This document shows positions 52,895 through 53,894 of a stretch of DNA of 64,000 nucleotides, in pieces; the first letter of the stretch is position 1, and the number at the start of each line of letters is the position of its first letter. The notes under the pieces are model-generated. The model did no database searches, had not been told where the DNA came from, and saw only the letters and a list, made by a program, of their open reading frames with translations. The DNA comes from Octopus vulgaris (lineage: Eukaryota). The translations under genes were made by a program, and so were the position numbers. The stretch covers positions 87,420,001-87,484,000 of the forward strand of contig OX597824.1 of assembly GCA_951406725.2 (NCBI GenBank), in the 5' to 3' direction.

Positions 52895-53365
52895 AAGGAT
52901 AATATCAATATTTAAATATCGATATTATCAAGTGGCCAGCATGGGAAAAATACCATACAAAGGTAATAATTTTTTACAACTAAAAATAAGGGTGTCTAAG
53001 AGACACCACCATGCCGAAATAGCAGTCAAATCCCTGACTCTAAAAACCACGTTAAATGTTCATATCGCACCATGAGATAAGACAGAGGGACAAAATAGAC
53101 TAGCAAAAAATTACTGAATAATTCAAGATCCTGAATTTCTAGCTTTGCTTTAAATAAGCTTTGCTGTCATCAGTTGAATATACCAGATGGGCACATAAAG
53201 AAATCCAGGATCTTGAATTATTCAGTAATATCTTTTTGCCAGTCTATTTTGTCCCTCTGTCTTATCTCATGGTGTGATATGAACATTTAATGTGGTCTTT
53301 AGAGTCAGAGATTTGACTGCTATTTAGGCATGGTGGTGTCTCTTAGAAACCCTTATTTTTAGTTA
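52895..53365 (-). mobile_element. Fold-back element with central hammerhead ribozyme (PLE pseudo-LTR-like)
   Basis: ~163-bp arms 52978-53140 / 53199-53364 and an unpaired extension to ~52900 homologous to 12712-12780. Confidence 0.75.
53121..53179 (-). ncRNA. Type I hammerhead ribozyme
   Basis: ATTCAA-CTGATGA-c AGC aaa GCTT attta AAGC aaa GCT a-GAAA-TTCAGGA-TC-TTGAAT. 6-bp stem I; first stem II pair mismatched. Confidence 0.7.
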
Positions 53366-53894
53366 TTTATATATATATTTATATATTTTTTCATAATATA
53401 TATTTTTTCAAATGCAGCCAGACTTTTCACACAAACTTTTATTTATTCAACCTAGCTAAAAATAGATATTACTGCCATTTTATGATTGAGTAGGTACCAT
53501 TTCCTTTAAAATCACATGTTCCATATAACAATAGTTCAAAATCAGTGCTTCCTAAACTCTTCTCTGGCGCCGTCTTCTGCGGATCAATAATATCAGACCA
53601 GTGCCCGTTGCCCTATATTCACTTCAAAGACATATTTGAGGATTTTAGTGATTTCGGTTCGAACAACATTATGATGGATAACACACAATATAAATTAGGA
53701 CACACAATAGATTTTGAAAGCAATTTTGTTTCACATTTTATCTGTAATTTAATTACAGCAGTTGAGTTGAAATTTTAAAAAAAACAATTATTGGCAAATT
53801 TTTGTAAGTGGATTTGGGTAGACAAAAAATATCAGAAGTTTGTCATACATGCATGTGTATGTGTGTGTGTGTATACATACACACACACATACAT

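Follow-up and report, generated by a model that had tools for sequence, protein, structure and literature searches.

Hammerhead-bearing palindromes of the Octopus vulgaris genome share two end sites and a predicted tail RNA fold

How a palindrome comes to surround a hammerhead ribozyme, with a tail at one of its ends only, bears on a question that is still open in the literature on Penelope-like elements (PLEs): the origin of their inverted ends and one-sided tail. We investigated such a palindrome at about 53 kb of a 64,000-nt stretch of Octopus vulgaris contig OX597824.1, hereafter the window. An earlier note, made from the sequence alone, had compared it with a second palindrome at 12.3 kb and proposed that a tail of ~65 nt common to both is the cis signal of the mobilising enzyme. 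The features that we located are collected in Table 1.

The layout of the 53-kb copy is itself ordinary. The palindrome contains a hammerhead and has arms of ~163 bp, as had been reported; we placed them at 52978-53140 (163 nt) and 53200-53364 (165 nt) and found them identical in 154 of 166 columns. The hammerhead has a type I core on the minus strand (CTGATGA at 53173-53167) with a predicted cut after 53127. The 3′ ends of the 53-kb and 12.3-kb elements do align, the terminal motif matching at 54 of 70 columns. Other parts of the description were revised. The inverted arm starts within the ribozyme, with GAAATCCAGGATC at 53200, but this placement is incidental because the inner junctions of 38 insertions are scattered over the unit. 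The 32-bp hairpin at 52898-52929, taken to be terminal, exists; since the element extends to about 52879, it lies inside a tail that is about 90 nt long rather than 65.

Table 1. Positions, within the window, of the parts of the 53-kb palindrome and of related insertions
Feature	Position	Strand	Basis
Left target-derived repeat and filler, in host repeat	52833..52878	.	
Direct, 5′-truncated arm of a family-A retrozyme unit, ending at the long site	52879..53199	-	
Long end site, CCTTATTTATAAA..., then TA-like filler	52879..52897	-	
P4 hairpin (the "32-bp terminal hairpin"), internal to the tail	52898..52929	-	
P1 3′ strand, CCATGCTGG, most conserved part of the tail	52936..52944	-	
P3 hairpin, ACC...GGT	52951..52965	-	
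Weak AT-rich hairpin with the short end site in its loop; AGTT ends at 52978	52971..52986	-	
P2 hairpin, GGTGTCT/AGACACC; in other lineages a hairpin of different sequence at the same place	52991..53007	-	
P1 5′ strand of the predicted tail fold	53009..53017	-	
Type I hammerhead motif, predicted cut after 53127; stem II starts with a C·A mismatch	53121..53179	-	descriptor scan
Inverted, 5′-truncated arm, ending at the short site (AGTT), 1-nt junction overlap	53200..53364	+	
Right filler and target-derived repeat, then host repeat again	53365..53410	.	
Family-B insertion, short/long layout like the 53-kb copy	12272..12814	+	
Parts of the 12.3-kb insertion: inverted arm; hammerhead; short site; long site	~12272-12474; 12525-12586; ~12727; ~12812-12814	.	
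Minimal short/long insertion, distant lineage	34696..34837	+	tail model, 59 bits
Short/long insertion, distant lineage	44818..45070	-	tail model, 38 bits
Tail-fold copy, distant lineage, internally deleted	47471..47607	-	tail model, 52 bits

The 53-kb and 12.3-kb palindromes are copies of high-copy, ORF-less tandem units that bear hammerheads, that is, of non-LTR retrozymes, and represent families A and B, respectively. First-look searches returned 2,419 and 3,051 candidates (40 scored for each). The tandem period is 484 nt in family A, 476 nt in family B and about 560-643 nt in more distant lineages. Within the 2.8-Gb genome of 227 contigs, the superfamily comprises at least eight lineages. 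Lineages C and D, together with subfamilies, came to light in a position-ordered sample of the 6,546 matches to an exact tail pattern, for which a control pattern gave 26; a pattern for a distant branch had 2,861 matches against 1 for its control. A covariance model of the tail led to the more distant lineages, in unrelated loci; these are tandem too and have a hammerhead upstream in copies long enough to include it. A broader tail model identified five tail copies within the window. The longest ATG frame in trimers of the unit is 36 aa in family A and 75 aa in family B, with no protein-coding ORF, and no RT/GIY-YIG ORF was found in the units, which are thus not autonomous PLEs. Upstream of the hammerhead, units A (L029) and B (L052) contain GTAAGT, which we take to be a splice-donor-like word, and presumed promoter-like words, E2F-like in A (L029) and ETS-like and B-box-like in B (L052).

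According to a descriptor scan, the repeat unit contains a type I hammerhead in families A, B and F and in further lineages. In the window, the scan identified three such motifs, at 12533 (+), 46971 (+) and 53173 (-). The one at 46963-47050 (+) has a long stem II and belongs to a different repeat, which ends ~50 nt past the ribozyme and lacks the P1-P4 tail described below; a similar motif occurs in L128. No hammerhead was among the 150 of 230 Rfam matches listed for the window, nor among the 22 for four loci. Of 26 tails, 7 had a match to a strict hammerhead expression upstream, in some cases with doubtful pairing; where it missed, the copy was mostly truncated or inverted nearer the tail, or stem II was longer. 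In copies that extend far enough 5′, the tails lie 100-190 nt downstream of the hammerheads, as anticipated. Stem II of the 53-kb copy opens with a C·A pair, and its second pair is A·U, against G·U in most family-A copies. [quoted passage not shown] The N·A opening of families A and F is possibly a functional variant.

We then compared the units of different families segment by segment. The 65-nt tail stood out from chance (z = 7.1, range 7.1-8.3; 200 dinucleotide shuffles); by the same procedure, the pre-ribozyme part scored z = 1.2 and the body z = -0.6, in keeping with the earlier statement that the bodies of the two palindromes have no clear similarity. The tail is conserved across the superfamily as a cis element, with 6,546 pattern matches against 26 for the control. 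The proposal of a ~65-nt signal nevertheless changed in two respects: the tail has two end sites, and what is conserved appears to be an RNA fold that begins ~40 nt upstream of AGTT and includes the hairpin.

The shared motif is part of a predicted RNA fold of roughly 145 nt. In this topology, the closing helix P1 bounds three hairpins, namely P2, an AT-rich one whose loop contains AGTT, and P3; beyond P1 comes P4. The two window elements folded independently into this one topology, with z-scores of -6.0 and -2.0, and one family-C copy folded no better than shuffles (z = 0.0). RNAalifold recovered P1 and P4 from 24 copies, and the pair counts exceeded those of all 500 shuffles for both pairing and covariation score. 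Across 12 lineage representatives, P1 was 98.8% paired, and 3 of its 7 pairs had changed on both sides; for P4, the values were 87.5% and 4 of 6. Slid controls were 33-49% paired. These counts and controls ignore relatedness and take the structure from one member's fold. P2 recurred, with a different sequence, in most single-sequence folds and is not countable by column. The covariation in P1 and P4 provides strong, if informal, support for the predicted fold. P4, a local palindrome in DNA, could also arise at the DNA level.

Copies of every family examined have one of two 3′ ends, each followed by (TA)n: the short site immediately 3′ of P2 and the long site ~90 nt further on. The two sites are about 85-95 nt apart. 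The inverted arms of both palindromes halt at AGTT, as the earlier note had observed; AGTT is nonetheless a cluster, blurred by TA microhomology, rather than a single nucleotide. Among tail-less arms of family A, 15 of 30 ended exactly at AGTT and 25 of 30 within -2 to +4. In family B, 26 of 28 ended within -2 to +7: 8 were at AGTT, and 14 were scored at +7, although TA microhomology inflates this last count. The expectation that inverted arms end at one nucleotide was therefore borne out as a narrow window at AGTT and not as a single position.

To characterize how the two ends are combined, we scored 152 distinct insertions from families A, B, E and F, a sample of best-BLAST matches of which 112 came from tail-containing queries and which includes a few segmental duplicates. 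Sixty-nine were inverted: 62 paired a short with a long end, one was long+long, one was scored short+short and five had no assigned pairing. The sole short+short case, L080, has a broken tail in its second arm. Tail-free queries yielded 40 insertions in all. Here, 15 of the 16 inverted insertions were short+long and none was long+long, for which a rough independence calculation gives about 1e-5; single copies ended at the short site in 18 cases and at the long site in six. A further 70 motif-selected loci were excluded from the pair count because family anchors cross-matched; with double counting, they comprised 27 short+long, three long+long, one short+short and one unassigned. The inverted insertions thus mostly have an adjacent inverted, 5′-truncated copy and a tail at one end, the arrangement of a PLE-type insertion.

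The inner 5′ junctions of the 38 insertions rule out the hammerhead cut as a 5′ boundary. Fifteen overlap by at least 2 nt, seven are blunt or overlap by 1 nt and 16 have fillers. Moreover, 47 of 72 arms extend 5′ beyond the cut, several by more than one unit length, as expected if the template was an uncleaved multimer or a circle. In 36 insertions (L088 and L093 set aside), the short arm reached further 5′ in 14, the long arm in 19, and the reach was equal in three. As the tail is always in the long arm, neither arm is generally a fold-back copy of the other.

These data bear on the possibility that mobilisation is of the PLE type but with a short end that forms at the DNA level. A cDNA fold-back, or self-priming by antisense RNA, would produce a hairpin or dimer that is nicked at AGTT, and the tail would then be a recognition site of the endonuclease in DNA. 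Junction overlaps of at least 2 nt (15/38) would suit such a process, as would variants common to both arms. It does not readily account for the 14 of 36 insertions whose short arm has sequence absent from the long arm, nor for the 18 of 40 insertions from tail-free queries that are single and short-ended with no hairpin partner detected. In addition, many of the one-sided changes in P1 are G·U-compatible on the sense strand, which suits pairing in RNA over pairing in DNA. We consider a DNA-made short end unlikely.

Arms of the same insertion were more alike than arms of different insertions, with 2.31 versus 3.44 differences per 60 nt (n = 49, Wilcoxon p = 5.6e-5; L088, L093, L257 and L258 set aside). 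The difference to self was below that to others in 30 of the 49 insertions; the order was reversed in the 53-kb copy (4 versus 3.1). Single arms had a possible partner from another family in 1 of 83 cases at most. The only candidate cross-family pair is at L042:800-1470, a possible further tail-fold lineage inverted beside a family-B copy. The shared variants and the rarity of cross-family pairs point to one template per insertion, and two priming events on a single template would be the simplest reading of the arms. Their similarity could also stem from later gene conversion.

The host of the 53-kb insertion is another repeat (148 first-look candidates, about 94% identity). By its sequence pattern, this repeat (window 52620-52850 and 53370-53435) resembles the end of a Tc1/mariner element. 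A flank duplication of ~25 bp had been claimed; a 25-mer is indeed found at 52850 and 53381, but it is target-derived and not a clean TSD. At the filled site, the 17-mer TTTCATAATATATATTT occurs twice to the left of the insertion and about one and a half times to its right; none of 24 other copies of the host repeat has it duplicated. The flanks are therefore either a ~21-bp TSD with target-like fillers or an earlier 17-bp duplication with a 25-bp TSD. The empty sites in this comparison are paralogous host copies; contigs of four sequencing runs gave no joint across the insertion. More generally, TA runs were present on both flanks of 55 of 60 insertions, a bias towards microsatellite or AT-rich targets. 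Non-TA flank repeats occurred in 9 of 60 insertions, without excess over the 3-9 in shuffles, and a general TSD test is uninformative because the flanks are (TA)n.

Since AT-rich palindromes form easily, the insertions might be MITE- or Helentron-like DNA elements or replication fold-backs, their tail being shared by common descent without function. The lineages are homologous (z = 9.0 for A versus B and 21 for B versus C in whole-unit comparisons), so sharing alone proves nothing. Nevertheless, conservation is limited to the tail and the ribozyme, the body having diverged to chance level, and the tail has undergone compensatory changes. Furthermore, the centre varies from copy to copy between constant, asymmetric outer ends, and the fixed length, symmetric TIRs and fixed TSD of a MITE were not found. 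An origin of this kind is highly improbable.

LINE insertions also show TA targeting, 5′ truncation and junction microhomology. It is therefore conceivable that the units are retrozyme or SINE-like RNAs moved by a microsatellite-targeting LINE and inverted by L1-type twin priming, all the more so as a PLE partner was not found among the sampled loci. L1 twin priming, however, inverts a non-overlapping upstream segment. The arms studied here duplicate the same segment, overlapping in unit coordinates in most insertions, and both ends are internal to the tandem unit, without a poly(A) or simple-repeat tail of their own. As for the literature, the available text of PMC7229834 names LINEs or PLEs as candidate helpers, and a one-sided tail is described as PLE-specific in the parts available of PMC11167929 and PMC8557442. 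We give the LINE explanation little credence.

Together, these data make it probable that each palindrome is one insertion of a protein-free hammerhead tandem repeat, mobilised by a Penelope-like RT/GIY-YIG endonuclease through two-site priming. The unit would be transcribed as a multimer or circle. The enzyme would bind the predicted P1-P4 tail fold, cut both strands of a TA-rich target and prime reverse transcription from each, with one start at the long site and the other at the short site of one template RNA. Microhomology or short fillers would then link the two cDNA ends head-to-head. Single-arm copies would result from ordinary one-sided priming at either site and 5′ truncation. The tail, with its predicted fold, likely directs a borrowed Penelope-type enzyme to the points at which copying starts from each side of the cut DNA.

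We suggest more tentatively, and with appreciable doubt, that P1-P4 (~145 nt) might be a dedicated RNA for loading the RT and positioning its template. The closing helix would hold one start site in a loop and the second hairpin would set the other, such that a dimeric enzyme on one multimeric or circular RNA would assign each target strand its own start. Every head-to-head PLE insertion would then be a single, concerted two-ended event, and P1-P4 a portable domain that may have let at least eight diverged non-coding lineages reach many thousands of copies.

The earlier note expected the tails downstream of PLE ORFs as well. This expectation found no support among the sampled PLE loci, which yielded no tail-bearing autonomous element. 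The sample comprised 30+8+20 GIY-YIG loci (the 30 being drawn from 148 matches), 20+7 loci that belong to two young families or surround them, and 25 loci of a further RT family. The search covered best-scoring candidates, with L329 and L393 seen in part and Naiad and Hydra copies outside the sample. Matches to the tail model inspected at PLE loci were separate, TA-flanked insertions, and the apparent tail-PLE links at L132/L152 and L093 proved to be separate insertions into a TA run behind a PLE end. Searches by tblastn with PLE proteins against tail loci returned only unrelated neighbours where inspected. None of ten motif strings in the available part of the PMC8557442 supplement had a relevant match.

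The candidate partners were rejected because their 3′ ends differ and lack the tail fold. They comprise several GIY-YIG families that we take to be Neptune-like, among them one with an intact 781-aa ORF and one with intact 884-1008-aa ORFs, to which the 59.9-kb fragment of the window belongs, and also the (TAA)n-targeting RT family next to L014. The 781-aa RT+GIY-YIG family is young (L151, L152, L359 and L360), with many identical copies and no hammerhead detected; its 3′ region has what we presume to be repeated CCAAT/TGACGTC boxes, a TATA-like box and a splice-donor-like site. The 884-1008-aa family is young and very abundant (14,773 first-look candidates); its 3′ part occupies 57048-60267 (-) of the window and occurs at L354-L358, and it has 6.2-kb tandems, a 3′ region that is long and rich in CA and, close to its end, a hammerhead-like motif. 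An old PLE family at L392-L415 has (TAA)n ends instead of (TA)n.

The superfamily offers thousands of natural insertion products together with a predicted, covarying RNA fold, which narrow the mechanism to priming at two sites of a single template. It provides insertion-level evidence for PLE-type integration of animal retrozymes, the earlier case for which was co-occurrence and sequence similarity. It also supplies concrete predicted helices and start sites to mutate in an existing in vitro system, making the inverted-end question directly testable. On sequence grounds, the element appears to work like a non-autonomous PLE and classifies as a non-LTR retrozyme, not as an autonomous PLE.

Non-LTR retrozymes were defined in PMC7229834, and retrozymes are regarded as pLTR derivatives in bioRxiv 10.64898/2026.07.22.740005. 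As far as the available text of these two sources goes, the octopus units resemble metazoan non-LTR retrozymes in being ORF-less, AT-rich tandem units with a type I hammerhead, dispersed as monomers to multimers, for which PLE mobilisation was proposed. At 476-640 nt, they are larger than the 170-400-nt circles of PMC7229834 and within the 51-972-bp range of the bioRxiv study. That text describes no fixed short and long ends, inverted insertions or conserved tail fold; PMC7229834 mentions no cephalopod there, and the invertebrates of the bioRxiv study are insects and one anthozoan. The accessible part of PMC13282606 contains neither "hammerhead" nor "ribozyme". The families may be listed under other labels in Repbase, Dfam, the bioRxiv supplements or the PMC13282606 repeat library.

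EN+ PLE insertions, in the portions of PMC8557442 and PMC3846280 available, likewise have a head-to-head, 5′-truncated inverted copy, a 30-40-bp tail at one end, partial tandems and a hammerhead upstream of the end; PMC8557442 describes their (TA)n bias. Both sources offer endonuclease resolution or antisense self-priming as causes of the inverted copy. The Penelope promoter and intron are treated in the part of PMC2377424 at hand. Unlike EN+ PLEs, the octopus units have no RT/GIY-YIG ORF and their tail is ~90 nt rather than 30-40. Compared to those reports, the short/long pairing is counted here and is near-strict.

The closest biochemical parallel is in vitro TPRT by Poseidon_Ac (PMC11167929, as far as its available text goes), in which two internal RT start sites bound the tail, targets are AT-rich, both strands are cleaved and extended, and a dimer is predicted. 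The start sites are at a stem-loop 100-150 nt downstream of the hammerhead, and unprocessed RNA serves as template. Poseidon_Ac is autonomous, its start sites fall within the ORF and one AC-rich stem-loop is singled out, whereas the octopus superfamily, known from genomic data alone, has a predicted multi-helix fold conserved across non-coding lineages. Neither a conserved tail fold of PLEs or retrozymes nor a pairing of short with long ends is described in the literature searched. The inverted copy, the one-sided tail, the two start sites and the link between retrozymes and PLEs are published; the additions here are a longer, structured tail conserved across diverged lineages and a near-strict short/long rule.
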